Below, piece after piece: positions 42,362 through 60,142 of a stretch of 64,000 bases of DNA. Where the stretch lies: positions 42,776 through 106,775 of IMG/VR virus record IMGVR_UViG_3300035696_000018; one strand, 5' to 3'. This stretch comes from a virus. Below the pieces are notes generated by a model, which was not told the origin of the DNA, made no database searches, and saw nothing but the letters and a program-made list of their open reading frames with translations. How positions within the stretch are numbered: the stretch's first letter is position 1; every line of letters starts with the position of its first letter. Position numbers and translations under genes: made by a program.

Positions 42362-43245
42362 TGATTAAGCTAACGAGAATCGTAGAGTCTTATGGTGCCG
42401 AAGGTCAGCTTTATGACCTCGGGCAGGACTTTGCTGCTTTTCGTCGCATGATTGATGGTGCCGACCAACAGATTCGTCAACAGTACGAGAAGCAAATCGC
42501 AGCCAAATTGGTGGGAAAGCGAGTGCGTGCCCGTGCGTCCCGTGGGTACAAACAATACGTCAAGGACTATGAGTTCGATGTCACCAAGATTACCCTCGAC
42601 GATTACTATGACAATTTCGTGGTGGTAGCCTATGATAGCTCGACTCCAAAGCCAAAAGAGTATTTCCTCAAGTCCGGGTTCAAGATTCAGATTCTCGGAC
42701 CTGCTACTGGTAAACCGTCTCCGCAAAAAGGAGGCGACCCACGATTTGAGAAGCCAAAACAGGCCGGACCTATGCCAATCCAGCCAAAGCAGAACCAGGA
42801 TTTGGCCCAATCTCAACCTATGGCTTTAGCTCCCGCAACTCCCGCCGCTTCCGCACCGGCGTTGGATGAAGATGGTAGGAACCAAGGAGAAGGACTTTAT
42901 GATGCCTATGGAGTGGAAGACATCTCCAACGACATCAAGACGTGGTTGCCAAAGCTTCTGTTGAAGCCTGGAACCTCTATGCGTGACTTTGTTAAGGGAT
43001 TGGGTTGGGTGAAAGACCTTGGGCGTGGAACGGTGGTTGCCATGTATGATTTGAGGCTTCCTGGTAACATGATGAAACCAAACGTTAATCAGACTACGAT
43101 ACAGAATTTGCTCGCTCAAGCGAGTGTTTCCCCGCCACCGGGACAAAGCATTGGAACACGCTATGAAGTGGTCAAACTTGAACCCGACCAGCAAAAAGGT
43201 GAGTGGACACTTCGCATAAAGAAGGTAATGTCAAATGAACAATAA
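42361..43245 (+). CDS. Hypothetical protein (possible internal head protein)
   Basis: ATG overlaps the previous stop; MIKLTRIVE N-terminus. Confidence 0.6.
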   Translation: MIKLTRIVESYGAEGQLYDLGQDFAAFRRMIDGADQQIRQQYEKQIAAKLVGKRVRARASRGYKQYVKDYEFDVTKITLDDYYDNFVVVAYDSSTPKPKEYFLKSGFKIQILGPATGKPSPQKGGDPRFEKPKQAGPMPIQPKQNQDLAQSQPMALAPATPAASAPALDEDGRNQGEGLYDAYGVEDISNDIKTWLPKLLLKPGTSMRDFVKGLGWVKDLGRGTVVAMYDLRLPGNMMKPNVNQTTIQNLLAQASVSPPPGQSIGTRYEVVKLEPDQQKGEWTLRIKKVMSNEQ

Positions 43246-43861
43246 TGATAAGAAACTCTTAATGGAGTGCATCACTTTCCAAGCAGACGAAAGAATGCTT
43301 CGAGAGTCAACAGAGCATCCTAATCGTCCATTTACGGTGCGGGGAGTCCTGCAACGCAAAGGCAAGAAGAATCAGAACGGGCGTATTTACCCCGACGACA
43401 TTCTTATCCGTGAGGCGAACAAGTATGCTTCAACATTTATTGCAGACCGACGTGCTATGGGCGAATTGGACCATCCCGAATCCTCGGTGGTGAACCTGAA
43501 AAACGTCTCACATACGGTTACGGAAATGCACTGGGAGGGTGATGACCTTGTTGGTACGGTTGAAGTATTAACCACACCAAATGGCAACATTCTCCGTGAA
43601 CTTTTCCGAAATGGAATCAAGCTTGGTATCTCAAGCCGTGGTCTCGGAACCCTCAAAAAGGTCTCGGAAAACGTGGCAATGGTCGGCGACGACTTTGAAT
43701 TGATTGCCTTCGACTTTGTGTCCAATCCATCAACGCAAGGTGCTTTCATGGCCCCAACGGGTGCCATTCCTCTCGCCGAAGGCATTGTCAAAGACCCAAT
43801 CTCAAGCCGATGGGTCCGCACCGACGACATCGTTCGCAACATTCTTTCCGAAATTGGATAA
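43235..43861 (+). CDS. gp21: Prohead core protease (gp21-like)
   Basis: NQNGRIYP, GELDHP, VSH, GISSRGLG, DFVSNPS. Confidence 0.93.
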   Translation: MNNNDKKLLMECITFQADERMLRESTEHPNRPFTVRGVLQRKGKKNQNGRIYPDDILIREANKYASTFIADRRAMGELDHPESSVVNLKNVSHTVTEMHWEGDDLVGTVEVLTTPNGNILRELFRNGIKLGISSRGLGTLKKVSENVAMVGDDFELIAFDFVSNPSTQGAFMAPTGAIPLAEGIVKDPISSRWVRTDDIVRNILSEIG

Positions 43862-45189
43862 TGAAAAACCTCACGTCATTCTTAAAGCAATGCATCGCTG
43901 AGGTAATCGTCGAACCACGCCCTCAGCCGCCTCGCAAGATGAAGGGCTTACGCTCTTTGGTCAAGCATTGTGTCGCCGAGGTCATCGTCGAACCTGGAAT
44001 AACAGCCGAACGCCTGCGTGAACGAGTCAAAAAGGTTCTCAACAAACGGGTTCACATTGTTGGAAATCCGAAGAAGTTCGACATGAACAAACTTATCAAA
44101 GAATGCACTCTTGAAGTTCTCAAGGAGAGAGTGCTTTCTGAGAACTTTGACCCATTGTCTCAAGGACCAAACATTCCACAAGATAATCCATACCCCGCTT
44201 GGAATGCCAAAATGGCTAAACTCGAAGAGGAAGGCGATTCTTGGGATAGGTATCAAAAAGGATACCAAGCTGGTAAAGCCGACAAAGCTGCCAAAGCCAA
44301 GCCCAAGACGGGAATGGAAAATGTATTCTCGGTAGGATACAACGATGGGTACAGTGGTAAGAAATCTTCTACACCAGACATGGTTCGTAAGACAATCCGT
44401 GAGACTCATCCTCATGGTCGTTATGCTCAACAGGCGGGGGCTACCCCATTCGAGACACCACAAGACTATGAGGAAATCAAAACCTTCCAAGAAATCCGAG
44501 ACAGGGAAGACCCGAAAGGTCTCAACCACAATCTCACTCTGGAATGCGTTCATTGCGGGAGCGTCCACACATGCCGTTGTTCAGCACCCAAAAGGCGTTT
44601 CAAAGGCATATGCGAAACCTGTGCGAAAGTCCCGCTCAAAGAGTGGGGGACGGAAGAAGACACCATCGCCAAAGTCAAAAAGGAAGTCTATTCGGCGTTG
44701 AGGTCACAAGGATTCCAAAAACTCGGGGACGAACCACGAGACTACATGGAATACTATTTGAATGGATTCGTAACTGTTTCCATCTACATCAGTTTCGATG
44801 ACCGAAAAGCCCACGTTGAACGCTATTACGATAGCGAAATGGTGGACAATATTCCTGGTCATCACATTGACACTGCCATTCCAATTCCGCCTCAATATGA
44901 CCCGACTTTCTCAAAGAAACTCGTCGCCGTTTGCGTCAAGTTGAAACAAGCTGCCGCTGGTGATGAATCCCTCTTTGGAGGCATTGATGACATAGAAGAA
45001 CGTGTTCCAGCAATGGAATGGAAATGTCCTCATTGCAAAAAGAAAGCAGGCATCATTCTCGAAGTTGAATCTCCCGCCGATTATGTGGCATTTGCAGACT
45101 GCAACCACTGCGGCAAAGAAATCAGTGACCCCAAGCTGGATAAGGCGATTTACGAGGTCGTACTTCGTCATTACAAAGTTCTGCATTAA
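43861..45189 (+). CDS. Putative multi-module internal head protein
   Basis: Three N-terminal repeats LKQCIAEVIVE/VKHCVAEVIVE/IKECTLEVLKE; two Zn fingers. Confidence 0.55.
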   Translation: MKNLTSFLKQCIAEVIVEPRPQPPRKMKGLRSLVKHCVAEVIVEPGITAERLRERVKKVLNKRVHIVGNPKKFDMNKLIKECTLEVLKERVLSENFDPLSQGPNIPQDNPYPAWNAKMAKLEEEGDSWDRYQKGYQAGKADKAAKAKPKTGMENVFSVGYNDGYSGKKSSTPDMVRKTIRETHPHGRYAQQAGATPFETPQDYEEIKTFQEIRDREDPKGLNHNLTLECVHCGSVHTCRCSAPKRRFKGICETCAKVPLKEWGTEEDTIAKVKKEVYSALRSQGFQKLGDEPRDYMEYYLNGFVTVSIYISFDDRKAHVERYYDSEMVDNIPGHHIDTAIPIPPQYDPTFSKKLVAVCVKLKQAAAGDESLFGGIDDIEERVPAMEWKCPHCKKKAGIILEVESPADYVAFADCNHCGKEISDPKLDKAIYEVVLRHYKVLH

Positions 45190-45195
45190 AATAAG

Positions 45196-45225
45196 TTGCG
45201 GGGCTTCTTCATTCGTTGCTATAAT
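45196..45225 (+). promoter_or_regulatory. sigma70-like promoter at the start of the accessory island
   Basis: TTGCGG-18-TATAAT with TGc extended -10. Confidence 0.55.
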
Positions 45226-45236
45226 ACCCATGTATT

Positions 45237-46187
45237 ATGCAACCATTCCTATTTTCATACGACGATATTTGCCTTCGTCCGAAGCATTCTATCCTGAAAT
45301 CTCGGGATGATGCCGATACGTCGGTAAGTTTTGGTGGATTCAGGTTTGGATTGCCCATCATACCCGCCAATATGGTGGACGTTATCTCGCTCGAACGAGC
45401 ACGGGAGTTGGCCAAAGACGGATACATGTACATCATGCATCGGTTTGGTAACGCTACACAGGAAGCAGTTGACAGCGACCTTGATGGCACCCTCTTAAGC
45501 ATCAGTATCGGCGTCAAGGATGACGACAAACGGTTCCTCGATAAACTGTTTTTGACTCCTGCCTTCATCACTATTGACGTGGCTCATGCGGACCATCAAA
45601 ACGTGGCAGATATGCTTACCCATCTCCACAACATATTTGCATGTGGCGGGTGGGCCATGCGTCCGAAATTCATTGCGGGGAACGTAGCTACGGCTGACGG
45701 ATTCAAGTTTCTTGCCGATGCTGGTGCCGATGTTGTCAAGGTGGGTATCGGAGGCGGGTCCATCTGTACAACCCGCTACAAGACGGGTTTCCACGTCCCT
45801 ACGGCCTATTCTGTATGGGAATGCCGACAAGAGGAAAAGTATCAAGACGTGCCGATTATTGCCGATGGCGGATTGAAGCATTTCGGAGACATCGCCAAGG
45901 CATTAACCCTTGGGGCAGATATGGTTATGTCGGGGAAGTGGTTCGCAGAATGCATTGATTCCCCCGCCAAAATCGAGCATGGAAAGAAGATTTATCGTGG
46001 CTCAACCTCTTACGAGGCAAAGGGTAACAACAATCATGTCGAGGGACAGACGCTTGAAATCGAGCGGGCGTGTACGTATAAAGAACGGCTGGTGGAAATC
46101 AAGCAAGCCCTCCAGAGCAGCATATCGTACGCTGGCGGGAAAGACCTTTCGGCATTCAACACAGTAAAGTGGTATTTATGGCATTAA
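45237..46187 (+). CDS. guaC: GMP reductase (IMPDH/GMPR family)
   Basis: [47 protein letters not shown]; no CBS domains. Confidence 0.85.
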
Positions 46188-46486
46188 CACGACGCACATT
46201 TCTTCGAAGCCTTGGTGCCTTTGCGGGTGCCATCGGCATTGGACTGACCGTGACCAGACCCCAACAGGGGTTCCGCACAGACTACTATTCCACTTTCACC
46301 GTCAAGGGGCCAGACAACTCCTATTTGATGGGATACAGGGGTTCCCAGTTCCTTGAAACGGGGTTCGTTTACGCCCCGTACATTCCTCTCTACCGAACTC
46401 CCGCAATACACGCTTACGTTCCGCCCAAGTTCATGGAGAAGTATGCGAACTTGACAAGGGGCAAAAATCTGTTACAATTGGCTTGA
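46178..46486 (+). CDS. Twin-arginine-signal mini-protein carrying a major-capsid-protein fragment
   Basis: [23 protein letters not shown]; LMGYRGSQFLETGFVYAPYIPLYRTP is 19/26 identical to the gp23 segment at 61670..61747. Confidence 0.75.
   Translation: MALTRRTFLRSLGAFAGAIGIGLTVTRPQQGFRTDYYSTFTVKGPDNSYLMGYRGSQFLETGFVYAPYIPLYRTPAIHAYVPPKFMEKYANLTRGKNLLQLA
46451..46478 (+). promoter_or_regulatory. sigma70-like promoter
   Basis: TTGACA-16-TACAAT, 9 nt before ATG 46488. Confidence 0.6.
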
Positions 46487-46487
46487 A

Positions 46488-47015
46488 ATGAAAAAGCCTG
46501 AGCGGATGAAGCAAGAAGCCGAGCGAATTCTTGCGAAGTTGGAGTTTGTCGCTCGCCACATACGAAATGTGGAAGACAATACCCTGCTTTTGGGCAAAAA
46601 ACTCATTGAGCGGGGAGATATTGCTTTGGGCCATAAGCTGATTGCCAATGGTCAGGTTCACGATGCCAGCAAGTTTCACGGCATTGAGTTCGAATATCTA
46701 TCTCTCAACAATCCCACAGATGAGAATAAGCAGTTGAAACTCAAGTTGGCGGTACATCATCACAATACCACCAACCCGCATCACCCCGAATACTGGTCGG
46801 GCGGCATCAAAGAAATGCCGAGTGTGTACGTGGCCGAAATGGTCGCCGATTGGAAGGCCCGTTCAGAAGAATTTGGTTCATCGCTCCGAGATTGGATTGA
46901 CGAGCACGCAACTAAACGCTTTGGCTTCACTAAGGAAGACAAAGTGTACGAAGAAATAATGGAGTATGTCAACTTGTTGTGCCAGACTCCGTTTACAGCA
47001 GTTACAAACACATGA
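46488..47015 (+). CDS. DUF5662-like HD-motif protein
   Basis: HI..V, HDASKF, HHH..NPHHPEYW, EMVADW. Confidence 0.7.
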   Translation: MKKPERMKQEAERILAKLEFVARHIRNVEDNTLLLGKKLIERGDIALGHKLIANGQVHDASKFHGIEFEYLSLNNPTDENKQLKLKLAVHHHNTTNPHHPEYWSGGIKEMPSVYVAEMVADWKARSEEFGSSLRDWIDEHATKRFGFTKEDKVYEEIMEYVNLLCQTPFTAVTNT

Positions 47016-47413
47016 CACCCAAATCAATAAACCAAGCAGTGGCAGAGCAAGTTGAAAAGCTTGGCTCTGCGAAAGTTGTTGAGTCCGTTGTCGAGAAACT
47101 CGTCAATGTGGAACTCACGAAACGGGCCGACGCCCTCGCAGCGGCCATCAAGTTGGCCGAAGACACTTTGCGGGAACAACGCAAGGCTTCCAAAGCCGAC
47201 CAAGTTGCCGTCACCACCACAGGGGAACGGGTCGAGACCTTCTCGCCCAAAGCATATGAAGCCCTCAAGAAGCTGAACGAGAAACTCGCCAAAATCGAGA
47301 AGGTCGTTCAGAATGCCACGGAAAACGGCGACTGGGGCAAGCTGTATGAACTCGTGAAAAACGGCGGTCAGCAACCCGCAGCCGAGTCCAATGACAGCAA
47401 CGCAACTGCTTAA
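47012..47413 (+). CDS. Hypothetical coiled-coil protein
   Basis: ATGA overlap with the previous gene; K/E/A-rich. Confidence 0.6.
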   Translation: MTPKSINQAVAEQVEKLGSAKVVESVVEKLVNVELTKRADALAAAIKLAEDTLREQRKASKADQVAVTTTGERVETFSPKAYEALKKLNEKLAKIEKVVQNATENGDWGKLYELVKNGGQQPAAESNDSNATA

Positions 47414-47729
47414 GGAAGTCAAGGCAAGGGCAGACGCTCGCATGGATGAAACCGTCGAGCGTCTGCTTCCTCTTGTACGGAATTATCATGCTCACCAAGC
47501 ATGGCGTGGCGAGTGCCTTTGCCAGTACTGCCAGTTCATCCGACATGAGTATGTTCCCTACAAGATGCAGATGCACAAACTCAAAAAGCGTATCCGCTAT
47601 TTGGAGTGGGCGAACAATGATGTAGATATTCATATCGCATGGGCCAATGACCAACGGCTTCTGGAAATGACCCTCGAATTGCTTAAGATTAAGCATCACA
47701 AAAAGCAACTCAAATCTGGGAATGATTGA
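47391..47729 (+). CDS. Hypothetical protein
   Basis: 112 aa with CLCQYC; operon packing. Confidence 0.5.
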   Translation: MTATQLLKEVKARADARMDETVERLLPLVRNYHAHQAWRGECLCQYCQFIRHEYVPYKMQMHKLKKRIRYLEWANNDVDIHIAWANDQRLLEMTLELLKIKHHKKQLKSGND

Positions 47730-47985
47730 CTGGACTCAGACTCCGAAGGAAACCATAGAACGAGGCGAGGAATGGATTCGGGGAGAGGACATTGAGTCCA
47801 CGACACCCATTCACACTCACCCGCCTCGCACTTGGCGTTACTACCTTGCTTGGGGCATCATGTTTGCCTTACTTATCACTTTTCTCACGGGCACAGGGTT
47901 TGTCATCCTACACAAAGGTCAGAATGTCATTCAACGATACATCGAAAAAATCGGTTATGGACTTGACAACCCCGATGGGAAGTGA
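47722..47985 (+). CDS. Hypothetical membrane protein
   Basis: Single hydrophobic segment YYLAWGIMFALLITFLTGTGFVIL. Confidence 0.5.
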   Translation: MIDWTQTPKETIERGEEWIRGEDIESTTPIHTHPPRTWRYYLAWGIMFALLITFLTGTGFVILHKGQNVIQRYIEKIGYGLDNPDGK

Positions 47986-47991
47986 TATATT
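47963..47991 (+). promoter_or_regulatory. sigma70-like promoter
   Basis: TTGACA-17-TATATT, 9 nt before ATG 48001. Confidence 0.6.
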
Positions 47992-48000
47992 CCTTCAACT

Positions 48001-49185
48001 ATGATGGATTGGCTCGAAAAAAACACAGTTTATGTAACGCTTGGGGGTTCCCAGGCTTACGGACTTGCCAACGAACTTTCGGACGTTGACGTTAAAGGAA
48101 TCTGTGTGCCCCCGCCCGAAGTGGAGTATCACCTTTACCACCGCTTCGAGCAGGCACAAAACGTCAAGTGGCTCGAAGAGAAGTTGGCTCACGTCAAGAA
48201 CCCCAAGAACCCGAAGTTTGAGTCGGAACTCTACTCGCTTCGCAAGTTCTTCCTCTTGGCCGCAGAAGTCAACCCGAACATCATCGAGTTGCTTTTCACG
48301 GACCCGAAGGACCACTTCGTTTGCGAGCCTCTGATGCAGAAGCTTTTGGCCAACCGCCAACTGTTCCTCTCCAACAAGGCCCGCTATACGTTCGCTGGCT
48401 ACGCTTGCGACCAAGCCAAGAAAATCGAGAGGCACCGCAAGTGGATTGTCATGGGCGAAGTGAAGGAGCCGAATCGTGCCGATTTCGGTCTTCCCGCTGC
48501 CCCTCAAAAGGGCTTGGACGAAGTGTTTGGGCAAATCAAGGCTCAAGTCGAAGAGTGGAATCTCAATCAGTTCCCACTTGACGAACAAGAGCGTGCTGAA
48601 CTCAAGAACACACTTTGGGACGTGATGACGGAATTGGTCGGAACGGAAATCTCGGTGTCCAACTGGCCCGATAAGTACTCCGAAGCGGCCATCCACAAGA
48701 TGCAGCAGGACTTCAACCTCAGTGAGGATGTCGTTCGCTATATCTATGCGGAACGTCAGTTCGCCAAGGCCATGCAACTCTACAAGAGTTGGCTGTCTTG
48801 GAAGAAAGAACGCAATCCCGCTCGCCGTGCGTTGGAAGAGAAGAGTGGCTACGACACGAAGCACGCTTCTCACCTTGTCCGACTCATGAGAATGGGTTAC
48901 GAAATCATCACGACTGGCCAAGTCATTGTCAAGCGTCCAGACGCCGAAGAAATCGTCGCCATCAAAAATGGTGCATGGTCCTTTGAGAAAGTCATGGAGT
49001 TCAAGGCTGAAATGGAAGCGAAGCTTGAGGCGGAATACAACCGCCAGAAGGCTCTAATCGCCGAAGGCAAGCCTACACCACTTCCTCGTTCGTCAGACAA
49101 GGAAGTGCTGAACAAGCTGTATCACGACCTTTACAACGAGTACTGGTCGGACCACAAGCCACTTGACCTTGCGGAATATGGCTGA
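48001..49185 (+). CDS. Pol-beta-superfamily nucleotidyltransferase (YcgL/RlaP-like)
   Basis: GSQAYGL...SDVDVKG; NPNIIELLF; GYDTKHASHLVRL. Confidence 0.85.
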   Translation: MMDWLEKNTVYVTLGGSQAYGLANELSDVDVKGICVPPPEVEYHLYHRFEQAQNVKWLEEKLAHVKNPKNPKFESELYSLRKFFLLAAEVNPNIIELLFTDPKDHFVCEPLMQKLLANRQLFLSNKARYTFAGYACDQAKKIERHRKWIVMGEVKEPNRADFGLPAAPQKGLDEVFGQIKAQVEEWNLNQFPLDEQERAELKNTLWDVMTELVGTEISVSNWPDKYSEAAIHKMQQDFNLSEDVVRYIYAERQFAKAMQLYKSWLSWKKERNPARRALEEKSGYDTKHASHLVRLMRMGYEIITTGQVIVKRPDAEEIVAIKNGAWSFEKVMEFKAEMEAKLEAEYNRQKALIAEGKPTPLPRSSDKEVLNKLYHDLYNEYWSDHKPLDLAEYG

Positions 49186-49387
49186 GTATCAATATCGGAA
49201 AAATGACGGCAAATGGCGTCGGGTTGAGTCAATGGATGACTTAGCCGACGCCATCTATGATTTAGGCCCACGGGGCACCATAGAAATCAAACAGGTATGC
49301 GAACACGAAAAAACTTGGAATGACCACGGCATTCGTACCTGTGAAAATTGCGGACAACAACTCGAAGTAACCAGTTACAGAGACTAA
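49178..49387 (+). CDS. Small hypothetical protein
   Basis: CEH...CENC; operon packing. Confidence 0.45.
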   Translation: MAEYQYRKNDGKWRRVESMDDLADAIYDLGPRGTIEIKQVCEHEKTWNDHGIRTCENCGQQLEVTSYRD

Positions 49388-49388
49388 T

Positions 49389-50219
49389 ATGATTGGAGCA
49401 ATAATCGGCGACATCATTGGGTCTCCCTATGAAGGGGGATATAGGCGTTCCGTAACCACCAAGGAATTCCCCCTATTCAGCACGGACTCTCGCTTTACGG
49501 ATGACAGCGTACTGACGTGTGCAACCGCACAGGCGTTGATGCAGCCGTCGCTCTCACCCTATCCTCGACGCTTCGCCCAACAGTACAAACAATGGGCACT
49601 CCGTTATCCCGACCGAGGATATGGCAGCAAGTTCAAAGAGTGGGTTGCGAACCCCAAATTCATAGTGAACCACAGCTATGCCAATGGGTGTATGATGCGG
49701 TGCAGCCCGATTGCCATCTTCTACAATGACAGAGAAACTGCATTGAAGCGGGCGTTGCAGAGTATTCAATACACTCACTCTTCTCCCGAGTCGGCCCGTG
49801 GAGTTCTTTCCATTGTCGAAGCCATTTGGATGGCCAGACATGGGGCATCCAAAGAGGAAATCAAAGCCCGAGTTCAAGAGCAATATGGGCACATGCTCAA
49901 CCTTTCATTGAAAGAACTGCGTGCCAAGGCATCACGAGACATCCGTTGCAATCTAACGGCTCCCCAGGCATTGATATGCTTTATGGAGTCGAGAGATTAC
50001 GAGGAAGCGGTTCGTAACGCCGTTTACACGTTGGGAGATACTGATACTATTGCGGCAATTGCGGGAGCAATTGCTGAACAATACTACGGGGCTAACTCCA
50101 TCCCGTCTCGTATAACGTCTCCCGCCAAGATTCGCCTCAGTTCGGAAATGGACGAGGTAATCAACACATTCTACGCTAAATGTGGGCCTGATAAATTTGG
50201 TCAAACTGTTGGACTATGA
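49389..50219 (+). CDS. ADP-ribosylglycohydrolase (DraG/ARH family)
   Basis: GAIIGDIIGS.YE, TDDS, SYANGCMMR, THS, GDTDT.AAIAG. Confidence 0.9.
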   Translation: MIGAIIGDIIGSPYEGGYRRSVTTKEFPLFSTDSRFTDDSVLTCATAQALMQPSLSPYPRRFAQQYKQWALRYPDRGYGSKFKEWVANPKFIVNHSYANGCMMRCSPIAIFYNDRETALKRALQSIQYTHSSPESARGVLSIVEAIWMARHGASKEEIKARVQEQYGHMLNLSLKELRAKASRDIRCNLTAPQALICFMESRDYEEAVRNAVYTLGDTDTIAAIAGAIAEQYYGANSIPSRITSPAKIRLSSEMDEVINTFYAKCGPDKFGQTVGL

Positions 50220-50327
50220 ATAGCAAAGAAGACTTGGCAGCAATGTTCGAGGCACTTTTTCAGGAGAAAGAAGTGGTCAAAAAACCAGAGCCAGAACCAG
50301 CACCGGAGGAATGGGAAGAAACGGTGA

Positions 50328-51598
50328 GTCAAATACACACGACCCTAAAGGGTCGGTGCTTGCCTCTCACTGAGAGAGACGATTGGTGATTTGACTTTCA
50401 CCTGTCCATCAAGTGCGGAGCACGTAATGGAGTGTTTATTATACCGAAGTCCAATGTTGTTGGATGCGTTCAAGTCCGCATCCAAAACTTTTCCGTCAAT
50501 GGCATAATACCTACATCCTTTACGCTTTCCATTGTCAAGACCCCGATAGTCAAGTTGGCTGGTGTAGTGAGGACAAACGACTTCCACTCTCTTACCGAGA
50601 GCGAGTGCCTTGTAGGTCAATATGGTTTTAAGTTGGAAAAATGGGACTTGGGATAATCGGTTGTTGAACCTTTTACCTTTGTTCTGCTTTTTGATTTTGG
50701 ATAGGTCTTCCAATACCAATATGTTTGCGGAAGTTGTCAATAGGTCATTTACAATGTGATGTGTGTAGTTCTTTGAGAAATGATACTCTCTGCGTTTCAA
50801 CTTTTTGAGTTTAGTTCGGGCAGAGTGTGAAAGTTTGCCTTGAAGTTTGCGTTTGTTCCAACGTATCTTTCGCTTATGCTTATTGAAATCATTGCCTTTG
50901 ACGATGTTTCCTTCACTCGTGGCGATAAGACGTTTGAGACCTAAATCTATACCAATGGTCTTAGTTCCTTTGAGTGGTTTGGTGGTGTCATCAAAGACAA
51001 CCGATAGGAATACATTATCGTCTCTCACAAAGAGCGATGGGTCTTGGAGCGGGAACTTGTCAAATAGTTCATTGACCTTTTGATACTTGGAGAGTTTAGC
51101 AGTGATGCGTCCATCCATCGTAGTGAGTTTGATGGCGTCCTGTCCAATCCAAGTATAGATACGTTTATCAAGTTGGATGTTGAGGCGATTGGTTTTGACA
51201 GGTTCCTCAATCTTGTGATGATTAGCACGAATGGTCTTGTATTTGGAGATTACGTCCTGCTCTGCCTTGATTACGAACTGACTTGGAAGGGCGGGGAACT
51301 GCTTACGAACCAAGTCGTAGGAGCGTTGATGTAGTGGCATAATGCCATTACAGGTCTTCATTCCAAAGCGAATGGTGGATATAACGTTGAATACCTCCCG
51401 CTTCAAGGCGAGGGAGTTGATGAGGGACTGCTTATCCCCATCTTTCTCAAAAATCAACTTTATATTGTATGTTTTCATCTACTGACTAATATATATAGTG
51501 AGAAAGAAGAAATGTCAAAGAAAAAGTTATTATATTTTGATATGGCGTCGGTTCCTCCCCTACCCTAAAGGGATAGGGGTTTCCCCGCCGCACTGACT
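50328..51598 (-). mobile_element. IS200/IS605-family non-autonomous (tnpB-only) element
   Basis: Subterminal hairpins (CCCCTACCCTAAAGGGATAGGGG; CGACCCTAAAGGGTCG); inserted 3' of TCAT on the - strand; right end TTGAC; no target duplication. Confidence 0.85.
50345..51478 (-). CDS. tnpB: TnpB RNA-guided endonuclease
   Basis: RuvC motifs GIDLG, VLEDL, DADLNAS intact; zinc finger degenerate. Confidence 0.9.
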   Translation of the reverse strand: MKTYNIKLIFEKDGDKQSLINSLALKREVFNVISTIRFGMKTCNGIMPLHQRSYDLVRKQFPALPSQFVIKAEQDVISKYKTIRANHHKIEEPVKTNRLNIQLDKRIYTWIGQDAIKLTTMDGRITAKLSKYQKVNELFDKFPLQDPSLFVRDDNVFLSVVFDDTTKPLKGTKTIGIDLGLKRLIATSEGNIVKGNDFNKHKRKIRWNKRKLQGKLSHSARTKLKKLKRREYHFSKNYTHHIVNDLLTTSANILVLEDLSKIKKQNKGKRFNNRLSQVPFFQLKTILTYKALALGKRVEVVCPHYTSQLDYRGLDNGKRKGCRYYAIDGKVLDADLNASNNIGLRYNKHSITCSALDGQVKVKSPIVSLSERQAPTL

Positions 51599-51797
51599 AT
51601 GAAATCAACAATGCTCCCATCGGCACGAAGTTTCTGTTCCTCTACAAGCTGTTCAAGGAATCCGTCCGCTTCAAGTGGCACGACGAGATTTACCAAACTG
51701 ACGGAAGCCCCGTCGAAATAACAAACGTCGAGTATCTCGAACTTCTCGAAAAACTTCTCAAGCAGTTTGCCGAAAATGATGGGAAATTGAAGCCTAA

Positions 51798-52313
51798 ATG
51801 AGTGAGCACGTCAACATCGAGAACGACGAGATAACTGTCCCCTGGTATGCCATTCATGCTGACGGCAAGATATGCGGCTTCTTCGGTCCATTTCGTTTTC
51901 TGAGCAATTTCTACATGTTGGAGGATGGCGGTGTTTCTTTGGACGACGTTTACTATCCCTCGGTGGAACACGCTTATCAAGCTGCCAAATGGCCTCGCAA
52001 TTTGAGAGAGCAGTTCTTGGACATTACTCCTGGGAGAGCCAAGAAGCTTGGCAAAGAGGCTCCCAACTTCAATCAGAAGAAATGGGATAAAGCAAAAGTT
52101 TCGGTCATGTCCGCTCTATGCGGGCAGAAGTTTTGGAACAACTACAAAATGAAGCAAATGCTTCTGATGACCGAGGATGCTCACCTTGAGGAAAGGAACT
52201 CTTGGGGAGATACATTTTGGGGAGTGGATGTCAACGGAGTCGGGGAAAATAACCTCGGGAAAATTCTGATGCATATCCGCCACGACATAGCAACCAATCG
52301 AGAAACATTCTGA
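51798..52313 (+). CDS. NADAR (YbiA/DUF1768) family protein
   Basis: FLSNFY, YPSVEHAYQAAK, KF, LEE.N.WGD.FWG, GENNLGKILM. Confidence 0.9.
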   Translation: MSEHVNIENDEITVPWYAIHADGKICGFFGPFRFLSNFYMLEDGGVSLDDVYYPSVEHAYQAAKWPRNLREQFLDITPGRAKKLGKEAPNFNQKKWDKAKVSVMSALCGQKFWNNYKMKQMLLMTEDAHLEERNSWGDTFWGVDVNGVGENNLGKILMHIRHDIATNRETF

Positions 52314-52894
52314 TGAAACAATCACTGGAAATCACACTTGCCAAGCCTGACGTAACGGATAGGAACCTCTTTTTCTGCAAGACGGTCACGCCCGAAACAA
52401 TCGAAGACATCACCAAAGGAATCGTCAAAATCTGTGAAGAGGATACCCAAAATGAAAAGGTATATGCATTCCACGGATTTCCTTACAAACGACTTCCCAT
52501 CAAAATCTACATTGATTCCTACGGCGGAATGGTCTATCAGATGTTCGGTCTAATGTCAGTCATCGAAAAGAGTCCGACGCCTGTCCATACCATCGTCACG
52601 GGTGCCGCCATGAGTGCGGGATTCATGATTCTTATCTCGGGACACAGACGGTTTGCCTACGAGAATTCGACCCCAATGTATCACCAAGTCAGCGACTTGG
52701 CGTGGGGGAAAATAAACGAGTTGGAGAAACAAGTCATCGAGGGGAAACGTTTGCAGAAGATGATTGAGGACCATGTTCTGCGAAAGACAAGAATCACCAA
52801 GATGAAACTCGAAGAGATTTACAAGAGCCAAACGGATTGGTACATGACCGCCCGTGAAGCCAAGAAGATGGGTGTGGTGGACGAAATCATATGA
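52313..52894 (+). CDS. clpP: ClpP-like serine protease
   Basis: IYIDSYGG, AMSAG, MYHQ, DWYMTAREA..G.VD. Confidence 0.85.
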   Translation: MKQSLEITLAKPDVTDRNLFFCKTVTPETIEDITKGIVKICEEDTQNEKVYAFHGFPYKRLPIKIYIDSYGGMVYQMFGLMSVIEKSPTPVHTIVTGAAMSAGFMILISGHRRFAYENSTPMYHQVSDLAWGKINELEKQVIEGKRLQKMIEDHVLRKTRITKMKLEEIYKSQTDWYMTAREAKKMGVVDEII

Positions 52895-53244
52895 AGCTAC
52901 AAGTCAGAAGCAAATGTCGAGCACCGGGGGTTCCTAAGTGGGTTCCTCCCGAGAAAATCATGCGAAAATACCGCAAGAATGCGGTGGACCCGAAGAAGAT
53001 TCCATTCGTCAAATTCATGATTGTCGTCCCGACAGAAGACGACAAACGTCAACTTCAAGCGGGGTTTGAGTTCATTCATGATGGACCATTATTGGATGAT
53101 AACGATTTCATTGTCCTTAATCAAATCGCCCATTCCTATTTGGACCCCGAACGAGAATTGGGGTGTATGACCCCCATCGTAGTAAACCCAGAACTATACC
53201 AAACACTCTATGCCAAAGCAAATAAAGTTCTACAGAACAAATGA
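52891..53244 (+). CDS. Hypothetical protein
   Basis: 117-aa ORF, ATGA overlap. Confidence 0.5.
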   Translation: MKLQVRSKCRAPGVPKWVPPEKIMRKYRKNAVDPKKIPFVKFMIVVPTEDDKRQLQAGFEFIHDGPLLDDNDFIVLNQIAHSYLDPERELGCMTPIVVNPELYQTLYAKANKVLQNK

Positions 53245-53680
53245 AGTGCCCTACGGGCTTTTCAGCAACTTCGACACCAAGCACCCCATCACGATAGATG
53301 GAGTCAAATGGCCTACCACAGAGCACTATTTCCAAGCCCAAAAGTTTGCTGGAACTGGACACGTTGAAGCGGTGCGTCAAGCCCCCAAGCCCCGTGATGC
53401 GGCTGATATGGGCCGTGACCGTAGCCGACCCCTCCGTGCCGATTGGGAGCAAGTCAAAGACGATGTTATGCGGACTGCCGTTCGTGCCAAGTTCACTCAG
53501 CACGGGGATATGCTCGCCCTCTTGCTCAACACCGGCGATGCCGAACTAATCGAGCATACGACCAATGACAGTTATTGGGCGGATGGCGGCGATGGGTCAG
53601 GCAAGAATATGCTTGGCAAGATTTTGATGGAAATCCGTGAAGAACTCCGACCTGCTCCATGCGTAAACGCAACTTCCTAA
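53210..53680 (+). CDS. NADAR (YbiA) family protein, second copy
   Basis: FSNF, WPTTEHYFQAQKF, RADWE.VK, AKFTQH, LIEH..NDSYWADGGDGSGKNMLG. Confidence 0.92.
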   Translation: MPKQIKFYRTNEVPYGLFSNFDTKHPITIDGVKWPTTEHYFQAQKFAGTGHVEAVRQAPKPRDAADMGRDRSRPLRADWEQVKDDVMRTAVRAKFTQHGDMLALLLNTGDAELIEHTTNDSYWADGGDGSGKNMLGKILMEIREELRPAPCVNATS

Positions 53681-54264
53681 TAGCGGCGGTTCTTCATATC
53701 CTTATCATCTTCCCTCTTGTTTTCTTCGCATCCCGTGAAGGTATGCTTGGAAAGAAGATGCAGACGTTGACGGTGGTTTTGGTTCCAAAACCCAAGGTAG
53801 AAGAAGTCAAGCCTCGAACAGAACCTCCGAAGGTCGAAGTGCCAAAAGCGGCAATTCCGATGGAGCAACCCAAAGCTGTGCCTCAGACTGTACAAGCACC
53901 GTTGCCCGCTGCCGCTCCCGCCGTTGCCCCGCCGCCATCAGAAGTGCCCGCAATCAGTTTTTCTGACGGGGCTAAAGAAGTGCAATCAGTCACAGACCCG
54001 ATTCAGCTTTACAAAGCGTACATCGAATCGCATTTCAAGTCTCAATGGGAAACCCCTCAGTCTGATTACGAGACCATTGTCGAGATAAACATAACGCCCA
54101 AAGGCGAAGTATCCCCCGTGGGTATTGTATCCAATAACGGGGACAAAGAATGGACGAAATCGGTGACTGACGCATTGGCCAAGGTCAAAACCATGTCCAG
54201 ACCGCCGCCAAAAGGATTCCCAAATCACTTCCAAATAAGGTTTGACACAGCCGAAGGATTGTGA
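53659..54264 (+). CDS. TonB/TolA-like membrane-anchored protein
   Basis: N-terminal TM helix with His (AAVLHILII), Pro-rich linker, TonB-C-like W..P...I...G.V...W..SV..AL..PPP..F..RF. Confidence 0.7.
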   Translation: MRKRNFLIAAVLHILIIFPLVFFASREGMLGKKMQTLTVVLVPKPKVEEVKPRTEPPKVEVPKAAIPMEQPKAVPQTVQAPLPAAAPAVAPPPSEVPAISFSDGAKEVQSVTDPIQLYKAYIESHFKSQWETPQSDYETIVEINITPKGEVSPVGIVSNNGDKEWTKSVTDALAKVKTMSRPPPKGFPNHFQIRFDTAEGL

Positions 54265-54270
54265 TACCAT
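54242..54270 (+). promoter_or_regulatory. sigma70-like promoter
   Basis: TTGACA-17-TACCAT, 7 nt before ATG 54278. Confidence 0.55.
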
Positions 54271-54277
54271 ACTTACA

Positions 54278-54796
54278 ATGCAGACATTCCTACCATATCA
54301 AAACTTCCATCTGACCGCCGAAGTATTGGACCGAAAACGTCTTGGGAAGCAACGGGTAGAATGTCTCCAAATTCTTCGAGTGCTCAAGCAAGGCGAATGG
54401 ACTTGCCCGTCATGCCTCGGCCCCGTGACACACTTCAATAAGCATAAGACAGGATACCATTGCTATAACTGCGAGGCACCACTCAAACGCACGGCATGGT
54501 ATAACCATCCCGCTGTGCAGATGTGGAAAGGATATGAAACGGGTCTTATGATGTATCTCAACGAGATTTGCCAAGAATGGGTGCGTCTCGGTTACAAAGA
54601 TACCTGTTGGGAAAAGGCCATCGAAGTCGGATTCCGTCCACCCAATGTAGGCGAGACAACTCATTTGCCAGATTGGTTAGGCGACGAATCTTTCCACCTA
54701 TCTCACCAATCCAATCTACTCAGAAAATATCCAGAACACTACAGCCAATTCTTCATGGGCATTCCAAACGATTTGCCCTATGTATGGCCCAAATAA
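54278..54796 (+). CDS. Pyrimidine-dimer DNA glycosylase-like (DenV/MSMEG_6728 family) with Zn-ribbon insert
   Basis: MQTFLPY..LD.KRLGKQRVE..QIL; HPAV.MW.GY; P.WLG...H.SH.SNLLRK; LPYVWP. Confidence 0.8.
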   Translation: MQTFLPYQNFHLTAEVLDRKRLGKQRVECLQILRVLKQGEWTCPSCLGPVTHFNKHKTGYHCYNCEAPLKRTAWYNHPAVQMWKGYETGLMMYLNEICQEWVRLGYKDTCWEKAIEVGFRPPNVGETTHLPDWLGDESFHLSHQSNLLRKYPEHYSQFFMGIPNDLPYVWPK

Positions 54797-54798
54797 CT

Positions 54799-55176
54799 AT
54801 GGAAATCAAACACGTAAACGGAAAAAGCGTCGAAACAGATAAGCTTCCTGATGTGGATGCCATCTTGATGGAAGAAAGCCAAAAGCTGCACGCCATCTTC
54901 AAGAAATACAATCGCCAACTCTTCCTCGTCGGGGAAATGAAGAGCAGAGAGGATAGCAAAACCATCAATGGTTGCGTCTTTTTCCACGTTATGCCCGAAG
55001 ACCCCGAAGGGAAACCAGTGGACCCACAGGCGTACCAAAAGGCGTCGGGGTATTACTGGGGCCGTGTTGATGGCTACGTTCGTAGCATGACCAATCATCG
55101 CCTTGGTATCGGGGTTATCCCCCCGCCTCAAGTCGAGCCGTATCCTCCCGAGTATCAAAAACCAATAACCGAATGA
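54799..55176 (+). CDS. Hypothetical protein
   Basis: Start reassigned to the ATG just after the previous stop. Confidence 0.55.
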   Translation: MEIKHVNGKSVETDKLPDVDAILMEESQKLHAIFKKYNRQLFLVGEMKSREDSKTINGCVFFHVMPEDPEGKPVDPQAYQKASGYYWGRVDGYVRSMTNHRLGIGVIPPPQVEPYPPEYQKPITE

Positions 55177-55457
55177 CTTCTGCCGAAGCAATGCGACAGG
55201 CAAAGGACTCTATGTCCGATGCCGATTTGAAACGTTTCCGCCTAACGAGAGCGGAATGGGAAGAAGGTATTGATTGGCTTGCGGATTACTATGGCATCTA
55301 TCCTGATGCCGACCCAAGGAACAACGGAAAATATGAGTTACAGACCGATAACAGACATGTGGTTTTTGGCAAGGGCAAAATTGAAAGGTGGGAAAAAGTA
55401 TTACGGAGCGTACTTAGGGGGATTCCCCGAGCGTGCGAGAGCATTACTCGGATGTAA
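55173..55457 (+). CDS. Hypothetical protein (overlaps the next gene)
   Basis: ATGA overlap with the previous gene; 125-nt overlap with the MTase-like gene lowers confidence. Confidence 0.35.
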   Translation: MTSAEAMRQAKDSMSDADLKRFRLTRAEWEEGIDWLADYYGIYPDADPRNNGKYELQTDNRHVVFGKGKIERWEKVLRSVLRGIPRACESITRM

Positions 55458-55920
55458 GATTTCTGAACCAGTGCTTCATGTGTGCGGTGGGTGTGCCAAA
55501 GACTATCCTTATAAGCGAGCCTTCGGACCCAACGACAAGACGCTTGACCTTGACCCGGGAGTTCAACCGGATTTCCTCCAAGATGCACGAGAGGCTTTTC
55601 CGTGGTATAAACCATCACCGTTTAACGTTTTACAGGACGGAGTAGTATCGCCGTTGCCGGGAGAGCCGTGGTCAGGTATTCTTATTGACCCTCCGTACAC
55701 AGAGGCGGATGCGGCTCATTATGTACCGGGGATGGAAAAATATCCAAAACCCAATCAGTTGATTAAGAATGCGTTGGAAGTTCTTCCATCGGGAGGGCGT
55801 GTGGGACTTATACATTACATTCTTCCGAACCCGCAAGGTGCTATCTTCGTAGCAGCGGTGGGAATTCTATGCGGATTCAATAACCGCATCCGAGTGTATT
55901 CAGTTTTCGAGAAGCCCTAA
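55333..55920 (+). CDS. Small amino-methyltransferase-like protein
   Basis: VLHVCGG motif-I-like, DLDP..PD..DA, ILIDPPY motif IV. Confidence 0.65.
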   Translation: MSYRPITDMWFLARAKLKGGKKYYGAYLGGFPERARALLGCKISEPVLHVCGGCAKDYPYKRAFGPNDKTLDLDPGVQPDFLQDAREAFPWYKPSPFNVLQDGVVSPLPGEPWSGILIDPPYTEADAAHYVPGMEKYPKPNQLIKNALEVLPSGGRVGLIHYILPNPQGAIFVAAVGILCGFNNRIRVYSVFEKP

Positions 55921-56463
55921 TAGCTTCCATCCTCGAAGACCTTCGTAAACTCCTTTGGCTTTCTGACGCCTTCTGACGACAGAAAATAGATAGCCAAGCA
56001 GCTTCTTCTCGTCATCCGAAAGAATGGATATGTCAACACACTTTCCTCCGAAATTTTCGGGGAAAGGTTTGTTCACTTGCTTGTATATGCCCATTGCATG
56101 ACGCTTGCAAATGCCGTGGGACTTTCCAATTTGACGACCCCCGAGGATACCCTTGAATTCGTCTTGGCAATTAGCACACGGATTCATCATCGCTTGTTTG
56201 ATGATGTTTTTTCGGTCTTGCGGAAGAGACTTGAACTTTTGGATTACAGCCTGTTCTACACCGGGCTGTAGTTCGGCGGGTTTTGGCTTGGAAGCAAATT
56301 GCTTTTGGAGTTGAGCAACTCGCTCTGGGTCCATCGCTTCTTCCATCCAATCGCCCAGAACTTTGCCACATTGGGCACAGACTGCGTGAGGACCGCTTTG
56401 CTTGACGTTAACGTGGGTGCCACACTTGGAACAATATTCTTGTTCCCCTGTGCTCTCACTTAC
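55900..56463 (-). CDS. -1 frameshift extension of the upstream gene (or independent 148-aa ORF from 56346)
   Basis: Frame open 39 codons upstream of ATG 56346, encoding CSKC..CAQC; begins at the A-AAA-AAG slippery site. Confidence 0.6.
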   Translation of the reverse strand, partial: VSESTGEQEYCSKCGTHVNVKQSGPHAVCAQCGKVLGDWMEEAMDPERVAQLQKQFASKPKPAELQPGVEQAVIQKFKSLPQDRKNIIKQAMMNPCANCQDEFKGILGGRQIGKSHGICKRHAMGIYKQVNKPFPENFGGKCVDISILSDDEKKLLGYLFSVVRRRQKAKGVYEGLRGWKLLGLLEN

Positions 56464-57008
56464 TTTTTTTTTAAGAAGTCAACCTTTGGCATCATTGGCT
56501 TCGCCATCTTGCTCCCCGTCTTTTCAGAATCGGTTTCTTGGAGGGGTTGAGGACCGGGGACTTCTTTGAAGTCTTGGTTTGCACCTTTGTTGCCTTTGAG
56601 GTCGTAGTAACGTCCGAGGACGTGGCCGATGTCTTGGTAAGCTACACCAGCTTGTTGCATACGAGCGTATGTTTCCTTCACAATCTTCTGAAACTCGGAG
56701 ACACGCTTCTTGAGGTTCTGCATGTCTTTCTTCACGATTTCCTGTTGGAACCATTCTCCGCACTCATTGAGGGCGTAGGTTTCAGCAAGTTCGCACAGTT
56801 CCGTGATACCCTTGGCAGCGTTCATGAGGGCTTCCTCGTTCTTGAGGCACTCGCCAAAGTTCTCGTACATGGCTGATAGCTCCATCAGCTTTTTCTTTTG
56901 TTCGGAAGACATCTTTGGCGGTTGGGTGCCAAATCCGTCATTGGGGATGTCGGGCAACGCTTCCACTATGCGTTTCAAAGTGAGTTTTTGGGTCTTAGGT
57001 ACGCTCAT
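56460..57008 (-). CDS. Hypothetical late/head-associated protein
   Basis: TATTTATA 5 nt upstream of ATG on the - strand; KLTLKRIVE N-terminus; ..YQDIGHVLGRYYD. Confidence 0.7.
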   Translation of the reverse strand: MSVPKTQKLTLKRIVEALPDIPNDGFGTQPPKMSSEQKKKLMELSAMYENFGECLKNEEALMNAAKGITELCELAETYALNECGEWFQQEIVKKDMQNLKKRVSEFQKIVKETYARMQQAGVAYQDIGHVLGRYYDLKGNKGANQDFKEVPGPQPLQETDSEKTGSKMAKPMMPKVDFLKKK

Positions 57009-57041
57009 ACAGTTATAAATATAGTCCCGCAACGGGAAAGG

Positions 57042-57362
57042 TTAGATGTTTTTGTCAATGTCAGGCTGGGCATAGGTATCGAAAAAGTCAATAACTTCGT
57101 TGAAGTTTTTGAATCGCTTGACAGGCTTTTTTGGCTCTTCGATGTAGTAGTAGGTAGATTTCTTGCCCGAGGTCTCGTCGAGACTCTTCTTCTTGTAAAT
57201 CGTTATCTTGGGAGGCTTCTCCGTTTGAAGGTGGTGGTCGTCCTTGAACTTGAATCCCATCGTTACAAGATGGTCCACATCAGGCCAACGCCAATCATCA
57301 ATGTTGACAAGTCCGTCCTTGGCCTCTTGGTCAATGGTGTTTAACAGTTCGGTTAGCTTCAT
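57042..57362 (-). CDS. Hypothetical protein (possible internal head protein)
   Basis: MKLTELL N-terminus. Confidence 0.6.
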   Translation of the reverse strand: MKLTELLNTIDQEAKDGLVNIDDWRWPDVDHLVTMGFKFKDDHHLQTEKPPKITIYKKKSLDETSGKKSTYYYIEEPKKPVKRFKNFNEVIDFFDTYAQPDIDKNI

Positions 57363-57366
57363 ATGC

Positions 57367-58011
57367 TTATATATCAAGGGCGGCAACGAAATTCGATAGA
57401 ATGTCTGCACCCTGAGTCTCATCAACAAACGTCATTGACTTGGTGATTCGAATTGGGTCGTCCACTGTCATCTCGTCTTTGGAAGGGTCTTGCTCCTTCA
57501 AATCCTTCTCGCCTTCTTGACCCTTCGGTTTGCCTTCGTCTTCTGCACTCTCATGTTTGGTGAATGCGGTCCAACAGAACTGTCCACCTTCTCTCAGTTT
57601 TTTGATGACTGTGGTGTCGTTGTTTCCAAAGTCATCGGTGGTTTCATAGCGAACGAAAAATCTGTCTTGTTGTGTTGGGCGGGCTTCTCTGTAGTTTCCA
57701 ATGGCTTGGATTTCCTTCGGAGTCATTTCGATACCACGCTTCTGATTTACATAGCTATCGAAGTCGGCGTTAGTATCAAAAGTTTTGGCGATGACTTTTG
57801 GTTCGGTGTTATTGGCTACACCAGTTACACCTGTTCCAGTGAACTCGTCTTCGGCAACAAAGTTGTCGGGGTTTACGATGTCGGTTTCTCCACCGACATT
57901 ACCCGTATATTCTTCACGCATTTGGCGAAGTCCGATGAGAAGCTTCTGCTTCTGTTCTTCGCTCATTTTTGACTTAAGGGCTTTCAGACGATGGAATTGG
58001 TCAACGTTCAT
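57367..58011 (-). CDS. Hypothetical late protein
   Basis: TATTTATA 3 nt upstream on the - strand; MRE/LKE sites. Confidence 0.6.
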   Translation of the reverse strand: MNVDQFHRLKALKSKMSEEQKQKLLIGLRQMREEYTGNVGGETDIVNPDNFVAEDEFTGTGVTGVANNTEPKVIAKTFDTNADFDSYVNQKRGIEMTPKEIQAIGNYREARPTQQDRFFVRYETTDDFGNNDTTVIKKLREGGQFCWTAFTKHESAEDEGKPKGQEGEKDLKEQDPSKDEMTVDDPIRITKSMTFVDETQGADILSNFVAALDI

Positions 58012-58022
58012 GTGTATAAATA

Positions 58023-58376: not shown

Positions 58377-58426
58377 GCCATTCTATAAATAGGCGACTTT
58401 TTTTGCATTTTTGAAAAAGAAGATAG

Positions 58427-58434
58427 TATTTATA
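58427..58434 (+). promoter_or_regulatory. Late-promoter-like TATTTATA (representative; divergent copy at 58384..58391)
   Basis: One of approx. 18 gene-oriented copies or variants upstream of structural and endonuclease genes. Confidence 0.7.
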
Positions 58435-60109: not shown

Positions 60110-60142
60110 TTGAAGCGAGAAACTGAAAGAAAACCAATACAT

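Follow-up and report, generated by a model that had tools for sequence, protein, structure and literature searches.

Why would a bacteriophage keep a piece of its own major capsid protein (MCP) as a separate gene and place it behind an export signal? The question is raised by a 102-residue open reading frame at positions 46178..46486 (plus strand, stop codon included) of a 64,000-nucleotide (nt) stretch of viral DNA, positions 42,776 to 106,775 of IMG/VR record IMGVR_UViG_3300035696_000018, which was analyzed as a whole and is called the window here. Its product joins an N-terminus of the twin-arginine translocation (Tat) type to a segment resembling the MCP encoded in the same window (585 residues, 60110..61867, plus strand; Pfam Gp23, 3.6e-73). 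An initial annotation of the window, made from the letters alone, had described this two-part protein and proposed a capsid decoy or mimic; both halves of the description hold. Capsid proteins are among the main triggers of abortive infection (Lit, CapRel, Pif and CBASS), and to our knowledge no known phage protein is a homologous fragment of its own MCP kept as a separate, selected gene, and none of this kind carries an export signal. Our tentative first choice among the possible roles, suggested by sequence comparison, is mimicry: an accessory protein with Tat targeting would imitate the phage's own capsid strand and intercept a host factor at the inner membrane. The parts of the gene (aa, amino acid residues) and its counterpart in the MCP gene are as follows.

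46178..46486, plus strand: whole gene (P0001), Tat signal and MCP fragment, 102 aa; 13 full-length homologues, dN/dS 0.04-0.31
46178..46207, plus strand: n-region and twin-arginine motif TRRTFLRS, aa 1-10; TIGR01409 17.0 bits, cutoff 16.7
46208..46255, plus strand: h-region, aa 11-26, uncharged and rich in Gly, Ala, Ile and Leu, with no A-x-A after it; AlphaFold2 helix at 5-26
46256..46324, plus strand: variable linker, aa 27-49, with a second MCP piece at the same position in other members (sequence comparison)
46325..46402, plus strand: conserved core, aa 50-75, matching MCP aa 521-546 and T4 gp23 ~436-458 by homology; on the T4 gp23 mapping it holds the junction turn, the outward P-domain strand and the start of the P loop
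46403..46483, plus strand: C-terminal tail, aa 76-102, a degenerate MCP return strand (..KF..KYA..) with the clade-specific ending GKNLLQL (homologue alignment, hhalign)
61625..61846, plus strand: homologous segment of the phage's own MCP gene, aa 506-579 (BLASTP, Pfam, hhalign)

The small gene has relatives of the same build. Among 5.8 billion proteins, a word-indexed search retrieved 13 full-length homologues of ~100 aa (47-69% identity, 97-100% coverage), which share its N-terminus, its capsid-like core and its C-terminal ending. With a profile of 14 sequences, 374 matches at E <1e-3 were obtained among 1.84 billion representatives; the best 150 of these 374 comprised ~60 clusters of small proteins (67-135 aa) matching from their first residues, the rest being the C-termini of full MCPs. 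A motif filter applied to all retrieved proteins left 75 small proteins with the same architecture (clusters at 50% identity), and 70 of the 75 were aligned for the conservation and domain counts given below. Mean column identity across the 70 aligned members is 19%. Against this background R5, R6, F8, G62 and P67 are invariant, and G52, G55, Y65, A66, Y68 and P70 are conserved in at least 90%. The consensus reads M-N-R-R-x-F-L, an uncharged stretch (median 16), a linker of ~21 residues, GYKGxxFLExGxVYAPYIPL and a short variable tail. Purifying selection is focused on the RR-x-F motif, with its TatC-recognition residues, and on the capsid strand, with fast change elsewhere.

The ratio of nonsynonymous to synonymous substitution rates (dN/dS, Nei-Gojobori) was 0.04-0.31 for the small gene and 0.06-0.12 for its two neighbors; in an unsaturated pair of loci (L089/L094) the small gene gave dN 0.23 and dS 0.73. 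Its start ATG overlaps the final 10 nt of the upstream gene, and the downstream gene begins 1 nt past its stop.

45237..46187, plus strand: upstream syntenic partner, IMPDH/GMP-reductase family (Pfam 3e-53), whose stop overlaps the small gene's start
46488..47015, plus strand: downstream syntenic partner, DUF5662 gene (synteny)

The order GMP-reductase-like gene, small gene, DUF5662 gene was found in five of the five distinct related loci with DNA (L004/L085, L005/L084, L086, L089 and L094), and the GMP-reductase-like gene is followed by the small gene in more distant phages as well. Further scans of viral contigs added only L104-L109. The initial annotation had suspected selection on the peptide and had named two signs of a decaying recombination scar, namely a lack of homologues with the same architecture and a dN/dS near 1. 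Such homologues are numerous and the ratios lie well below 1, which together argue for selection on the peptide and rule out a scar. A functionless remnant of MCP duplication or recombination would fit a short gene that does not fold alone and sits in a mosaic island with two TnpB-like genes; set against ~75 clusters (50% identity) of one architecture, these dN/dS values, intact frames, kept gene order and start/stop coupling, it is scarcely credible. We conclude from these comparisons that the gene is real and belongs to a broad, ancient and selected family of uncultured T4-type phages.

Several variants of the locus were also seen. The closest homologue, P0002 (155 aa, 69% identity, on a 378-kb metagenome contig), has a 50-residue extension with a precomputed NADAR match (PF08719), and may be either a fusion or the product of a deletion joining the small gene to a NADAR remnant. 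Five small proteins of 82-98 aa (P0083, P0089, P0090, P0138 and P0158) carry the same C-terminal MCP strand behind N-termini without the arginine pair; these may be further, independently formed genes for capsid fragments or truncated gene calls. L005 and L086 have identical DUF5662 genes, small proteins that are 1 residue apart and GMP-reductase-like genes that are 83% identical, and the small gene and DUF5662 gene of L004 are the same as those of L086. Such mosaicism suggests that the loci recombined recently, the breakpoint lying at the beginning of the small gene or close to it.

The capsid-like half can be placed with some precision. Between 46325..46402 and 61670..61747 of the MCP gene (aa 521-546), identity is 19/26 in protein, a count of the initial annotation that we reproduced, and 55/78 (70%) in DNA. 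The further statement that many of the identical residues use different codons stood in part: 7 of the 19 codons differ and 12 are the same. BLASTP of the 102-aa protein against the phage's own MCP gave 25/49 identities (E 3e-13). Pfam Gp23 (PF07068) scored 23.4 bits on the window protein, just below its cutoff of 24.4 (model positions 295-332 of 376), and matched all 70 aligned family members. In a profile comparison (hhalign), family columns 32-98 aligned to residues 506-579 of the window MCP with a probability of 99.5% (E 3.6e-22), and EKYA of the small protein was paired with TRYA of the MCP, in keeping with the likeness of MEKYA to MTRYA noted at the outset.

Through the alignment of the window MCP to T4 gp23, VGYKG corresponds to T4 residues 436-440 and YAPYVAL to 450-456, and T4 residues 455, 457, 460 and 461 are A, T, R and G, the residues mutated in a published study (PMC9546572). 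In T4 gp23 the changes T457A, R460C and G461S alter head length and are sited at the P loops, at the quasi-threefold axes on which three capsomers come together (Fang et al. 2022, PMC9546572); the published mutant sites comprise the P-domain beta-sheet, the P loops and the gp31-bypass site (PMC9546572). A mapping of the segment on gp23 had been proposed in the initial annotation; as mapped here, the fragment (T4 gp23 ~436-478) is no arbitrary epitope but the strand of the P domain that runs to the P loop, and the core common to the family consists of the turn at the A/P-domain junction and the outward P-domain strand. In longer members, that of the window included, the P loop and a degenerate return strand are retained too. 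In several members the linker is replaced by RKLKAVWT..QDL (MCP 347-366, a strand and the start of the spine helix), and in others by RFKVY, the strand directly before the core, so that every capsid piece found belongs to or adjoins the P-domain sheet.

A protein of this size was held from the start to be far too short for an HK97 fold, and the structural predictions agree. Only a C-terminal P-domain element is present in its 102 residues; because the N-arm, E-loop, spine helix and A domain are absent, an HK97 fold or a capsomer is impossible. AlphaFold2 with 70 sequences gave a mean predicted local distance difference test score (pLDDT) of 67, with the helix at residues 5-26 at ~88 and the capsid-like part at 49-73 with no sheet; with 14 sequences the mean was 50 and only the N-terminal helix was confident. 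No folded domain was predicted past the signal helix, and the passenger probably needs a partner to fold. A split MCP or an intron artefact was rejected, since a complete 585-aa MCP is present.

The small gene evolves differently from the MCP gene. Between the window and a related contig (G003), identity is 83% for the MCP, 80% for the prohead protease, 66% for the DUF5662 protein, 61% for the GMP-reductase-like protein and 39% for the small protein, which makes the small gene the fastest-evolving of its block in this pair. Across the segment the two MCPs are alike save for one Leu/Met difference and both read YSPY; both small proteins read YAPY. Near-identical MCP segments, YSPY against YAPY and small proteins only 39% identical argue that there was no recent gene conversion. 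Recent duplication or gene conversion from the resident MCP was accordingly rejected, on the 7 differing codons among 19, the DNA identity of 70%, the YSPY/YAPY difference and the contrast with G003. In another genome (G004) the core strand of the small protein is 11/13 identical to its own MCP (DAGYFYAPYIP type); in its best alignment to window-type MCPs, over a longer stretch of 32 residues, the small protein reaches 31% identity. For P0149, identity is 60% to the G004 MCP type and 33% to the window type. From these alignments the small proteins appear to follow the MCP type of their own phage, three genomes holding both genes.

The distribution of the family is patchy. It was not found in 50,697 GenBank phage records, where tblastn with three members gave MCP genes only, and the DNA of the region had no match among GenBank phages. 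A pattern scan of 185,579 prokaryote genomes gave 0 matches, and 10 of 10 large contigs (74-115 kb) with closely related MCPs had no family member. PHROGs holds no family of its own for these proteins: the only hits were phrog_138 (major head protein, 43/70) and three families lacking an assigned function. Pfam, PHROG, NCBIfam and PADLOC contain no covering family beyond the two component motifs, PADLOC gave no matches at all, and a full-text literature search returned no description of proteins that combine a Tat signal with a capsid fragment. Sequencing runs matching the window's phage were peat DNA metagenomes (0.84 and 0.40 of sampled words present), with no RNA run listed among them. The contig from which the window is taken (106.8 kb) is ~30% complete, so that the genome probably exceeds 300 kb; one homologue lies on a 378-kb contig.

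A second Tat-tagged gene with a different piece of capsid came from the Pfam Gp23 search.

L113:1501-1713 = L104:1973-2188, also in L105, minus strand: sister gene P0185, 71 aa (Gp23 match)

P0185 occurs in G001/G002 (L104/L105) upstream of the gene for the C-terminal piece, with a 4-nt overlap with its start, and has three further homologues (P0186-P0188); the window's contig has no gene for the N-terminal piece. The protein begins MNRRKFLGTL..., very similar to the family's N-terminus, and then copies an N-terminal MCP segment, with 19/33 (58%) identity to residues 92-124 of the window MCP (E 3e-11). This segment corresponds to about residues 99-131 of T4 gp23 and, as aligned, would overlap the Gol region that triggers Lit, which we take to span residues 93-122. 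Gol is described in a review as the most conserved part of gp23 and as the trigger of the Lit protease (PMC3014915).

The signal half of the protein was examined in the same alignment. The window protein carries T-R-R-T-F-L-R near its N-terminus, which fits the Tat consensus S/T-R-R-x-F-L-K. The Tat model TIGR01409 scores 17.0 bits on it, above the cutoff of 16.7, and matches 36 of the 70 members; Pfam TAT_signal (PF10518) stays sub-threshold at 13.3 bits (cutoff 22.7) and matches 16. The Tat assignment of the initial annotation is supported by the first of these models and not by the second. The uncharged stretch after the arginine pair is 16 residues long in the window protein (family median 16, range 8-24, n=70), and the best 12-residue Kyte-Doolittle mean has a family median of 2.19, as expected of a Tat h-region (~12-20 uncharged residues, with a hydrophobicity below that of Sec signals and transmembrane helices). 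Only a very short n-region precedes the arginines (median 2 residues). An A-x-A signal-peptidase site is present in just 15 of the 70 members and missing from the window protein; cleavage is therefore doubtful and an uncleaved anchor plausible, although the sequence would plausibly fit non-canonical cleavage as well. A DNA pattern built from the family N-terminus also caught bacterial sulfatase-like proteins (CxPSR motif recognized by eye) with the same N-terminus, which we take as a probable, unplanned positive control for the Tat assignment, and the nearest language-model clusters are Tat-signal proteins ([Fe]-hydrogenase small subunit, Rieske-type Tat domain). The idea that the arginine pair is a remnant of the LVRRVF motif in the N-arm of the MCP was rejected: hhalign aligns family columns 32-98 only and none of columns 1-31, so that the signal is not detectably derived from the MCP.

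The default consequence of such a signal, with its invariant RR-x-F, is export, and the protein might act in the periplasm or envelope, either cleaved or anchored with its C-terminus out, in superinfection exclusion, in lysis timing as T4 RI does, or in envelope remodeling; in that case the capsid strand would have been co-opted as a binding module, for instance for capsid contents released into the periplasm by a superinfecting phage. Phage envelope proteins of this kind are typically small and quick to evolve, the linker that follows the h-region carries a net positive charge in 39 of the 70 members, as in Sec-avoidance regions, and some members show by eye a plausible signal-peptidase site (-3 Ile/Val, -1 Ser) before YDPV. 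Left unexplained are the near-invariant capsid-type residues, the matching to the phage's own MCP and the sister gene with its different MCP piece, and PHROGs gave no similarity to holin, antiholin, Imm or Sp families. We consider a periplasmic role possible but doubtful. An alternative use of the same signal is far less probable: a high-affinity signal joined to an unfoldable passenger could jam or occupy TatBC and keep the host from exporting its Tat substrates, cell-wall amidases for example, during infection. Within the window's clade the passenger is less conserved than the signal, and AlphaFold2 predicts it to be unfolded; a jam gives no reason for a capsid strand, for near-invariant residues in it or for its matching to the resident MCP, and we regard it as very improbable.

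The surroundings of the gene bear on its role from two sides. It is part of an insertion of 14.7 kb (43810..58558), an island that separates the prohead protease gene (43235..43861, Peptidase_S77) from the scaffold-like and MCP genes (58559..61867), the flanking genes all being on the plus strand. The island encodes GMP-reductase-like, DUF5662, RlaP-type nucleotidyltransferase, ADP-ribosylglycohydrolase, TnpB-like, NADAR and ClpP proteins, among them the following.

48001-49185: RlaP-type nucleotidyltransferase, island
49389-50219: ADP-ribosylglycohydrolase, island
51798-52313, plus strand: NADAR gene

In L104/L105 the neighbors are R2K ATP-grasp, DUF4326, 2H-phosphoesterase-like and clamp loader genes, and in L107 a SLOG protein gene. 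These neighbors are typical accessory or conflict genes.

A second role suggested by this position is in head assembly. The Tat signal would fix the protein to the inner membrane on its cytoplasmic side, at TatBC or in the lipid, and its strand would add to, or swap into, the P-domain sheet of the phage's own MCP, tethering or nucleating procapsids or capping unassembled MCP; such giant cargo could not be translocated, so that the tether would be stable. In the window, L107 and L109 the island comes straight after the prohead protease gene, with the scaffold and MCP genes following it; the residues conserved in the family are those conserved in MCPs; the strand includes the T4 gp31-bypass position and runs on to the P loop, by which capsomer contacts are controlled; the C-terminal part does not fold alone in AlphaFold2; and the type of the strand matches that of the resident MCP. 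The rates of change are hard to reconcile with this role, the small protein being 39% and the MCP 83% identical between two phages whose MCP segments are the same but for one Leu/Met. The family is also missing from all cultured T4-type phages and from the 10 related large contigs, which argues against a core morphogenesis function; the L104/L105 member lies in a replication and accessory neighborhood, and many members end straight after the strand, without the P loop. We therefore think an assembly role unlikely, and rank it level with the periplasmic one.

The initial annotation had called the island early. This found no support: the gene lies in an accessory island between head genes, with no sign of timing. 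An octamer, TATAAATA or TATTTATA depending on the strand, has 13 sites in the window where ~1 is expected, TATTTATA being in the sense of the downstream gene. About 10 of the 13 sites precede an ATG or gene start on their own strand by 4-40 nt, two are farther away and one is intragenic.

7939, 15611, 20352, 27743, 39239, 61948 and 61969: examples of octamer sites, sense TATTTATA
57014, 58015 and 58384: octamer sites, sense on the minus strand

The octamer is probably a late-promoter-like element, TATTTATA being the reverse complement of the T4 late box TATAAATA. No sites occur between 39246 and 57014, a weak hint that the small gene may be co-transcribed with upstream head genes.

Other genes of the region were recorded in passing. 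Adjacent NADAR and ClpP-like protease genes (51798-52894, plus strand) share the island with the ADP-ribosylglycohydrolase and RlaP genes, and the set suggests counter-defence by ADP-ribose processing and RNA repair. Directly after the prohead protease gene, 43810-45189 (plus strand) encodes a 459-aa protein with three N-terminal C-x-AEVIVEP-like repeats and a zinc-ribbon-like C-terminus, and L005, L094, L107 and L109 have homologues in the corresponding position; the protein may belong to the head interior or core and carry protease sites. A TnpB/IS605 OrfB-like gene of the island (50345-51478, minus strand) matches Pfam OrfB_IS605 and a Cas12f-like TNB domain, and a second TnpB-like gene (62935-63975, plus strand), recognized from sequence alone, follows the MCP and C1-peptidase genes. 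The latter, a papain-family Peptidase_C1 gene (61995-62801, plus strand), lies directly downstream of the MCP gene, the position of T4's gene 24 (vertex protein); no gp24-like paralogue was found in the 106.8-kb contig.

Taken together, fast evolution, patchy distribution, conflict-gene neighbors and the Gol-like sister gene lead us to rank a host-directed capsid mimic first, tentative as that choice is. Through its signal the protein would reach the inner membrane or the TatBC receptor, the signal probably staying on as an uncleaved anchor; the capsid strand, unable to fold alone, would work by mimicry. It would occupy a host factor that recognizes the conserved capsid segment, such as a membrane-associated capsid sensor, which would thereby be kept from, or misled about, the real MCP. 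The decoy proposed initially thus fits the four features just named and the matching to the phage's own MCP; where it falters is the default Tat topology, which opposes a cytoplasmic sensor.

That topology is the chief weakness of every cytoplasmic model, because a working Tat signal exports its passenger. If the signal functions, the capsid-like part would end up in the periplasm, apart from the cytoplasmic MCP and the known capsid sensors. Speculatively, the difficulty could be bypassed if an untranslocatable complex were held at TatBC, or if a bound partner were exported as a hitch-hiker. In an elaboration that we hold improbable, Tat-tagged copies of the two most conserved MCP segments would capture a host immune protein and drag it to the Tat translocon. 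There the sensor would be retained at the membrane or even exported as a hitch-hiker, and the phage would counter the defence by taking a cytoplasmic sensor out of its compartment. Several further points weigh against a mimic: no protein is known to us that senses this strand, and the host is only assumed to have a Tat system. In the window's clade the gene stands between head-morphogenesis genes, which would fit an assembly role equally well, and the matching to the resident MCP rests on three genomes with both genes and could also be explained by occasional gene conversion.

Whichever role applies, the architecture is new in kind, the family being missing from Pfam, PHROGs and every cultured phage examined, and it would be new even if the protein served in assembly or lysis control. 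At ~100 residues it offers a test object for how phages conceal their most conserved structural motifs or turn them to use, and it bears on the use or abuse of the Tat pathway by lytic phages and on the binding partners of the strongly conserved T4-type P-domain strand.

Among known proteins, the nearest by homology are the T4-type MCP gp23 and vertex protein gp24 (PF07068, HK97 fold): family columns 32-98 are homologous to the final ~75 MCP residues, with the same Gly, Tyr and Pro positions conserved. The family covers only ~40-75 of their ~520-585 residues, lacking the N-arm, E-loop, spine helix, A domain and insertion domain, and bears an export signal that no MCP has. With Tat-signal proteins, including those with uncleaved anchors such as Rieske iron-sulfur proteins, it has in common RR-x-F-L near the N-terminus, a moderate h-region of ~16 residues and basic residues after it. 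The family differs from them in its very short n-region, the lack of A-x-A in most members and a passenger that is a 50-75-residue fragment of a cytoplasmic structural protein, without a cofactor site or a predicted fold of its own. The T4 antiholin RI has an N-terminal signal-anchor-release domain and a periplasmic sensor domain, and its targeting is of the Sec type, with no arginine pair. RI resembles the family in its ~100 aa, its weakly hydrophobic N-terminal segment rich in Gly, Ala and Ser and its fast evolution; the two show no sequence similarity in PHROGs, and RI lacks capsid homology.

The Gol peptide of T4 gp23, recognized by the Lit protease of prophage e14, shows that a short conserved MCP segment alone can be the recognized element, and the sister gene in L104/L105 carries a homologue of this N-terminal segment. 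Gol sits in the full MCP and triggers defence, whereas the family's pieces are separate genes with export signals; the piece in the window's gene is the C-terminal strand, outside the Gol region, and no sensor like Lit came to light for it. A parallel in concept is DSAD1, a cytoplasmic protein that is not known to be homologous to its structural trigger. As published (PMC11087589), this phage accessory protein competes with the tail tube protein for the DSR2 sensor, occupying the site at which the sensor binds its trigger. The protein described here, whose function is putative, would follow the same concept in another form, that of a true homologous fragment of the trigger equipped with a Tat signal.

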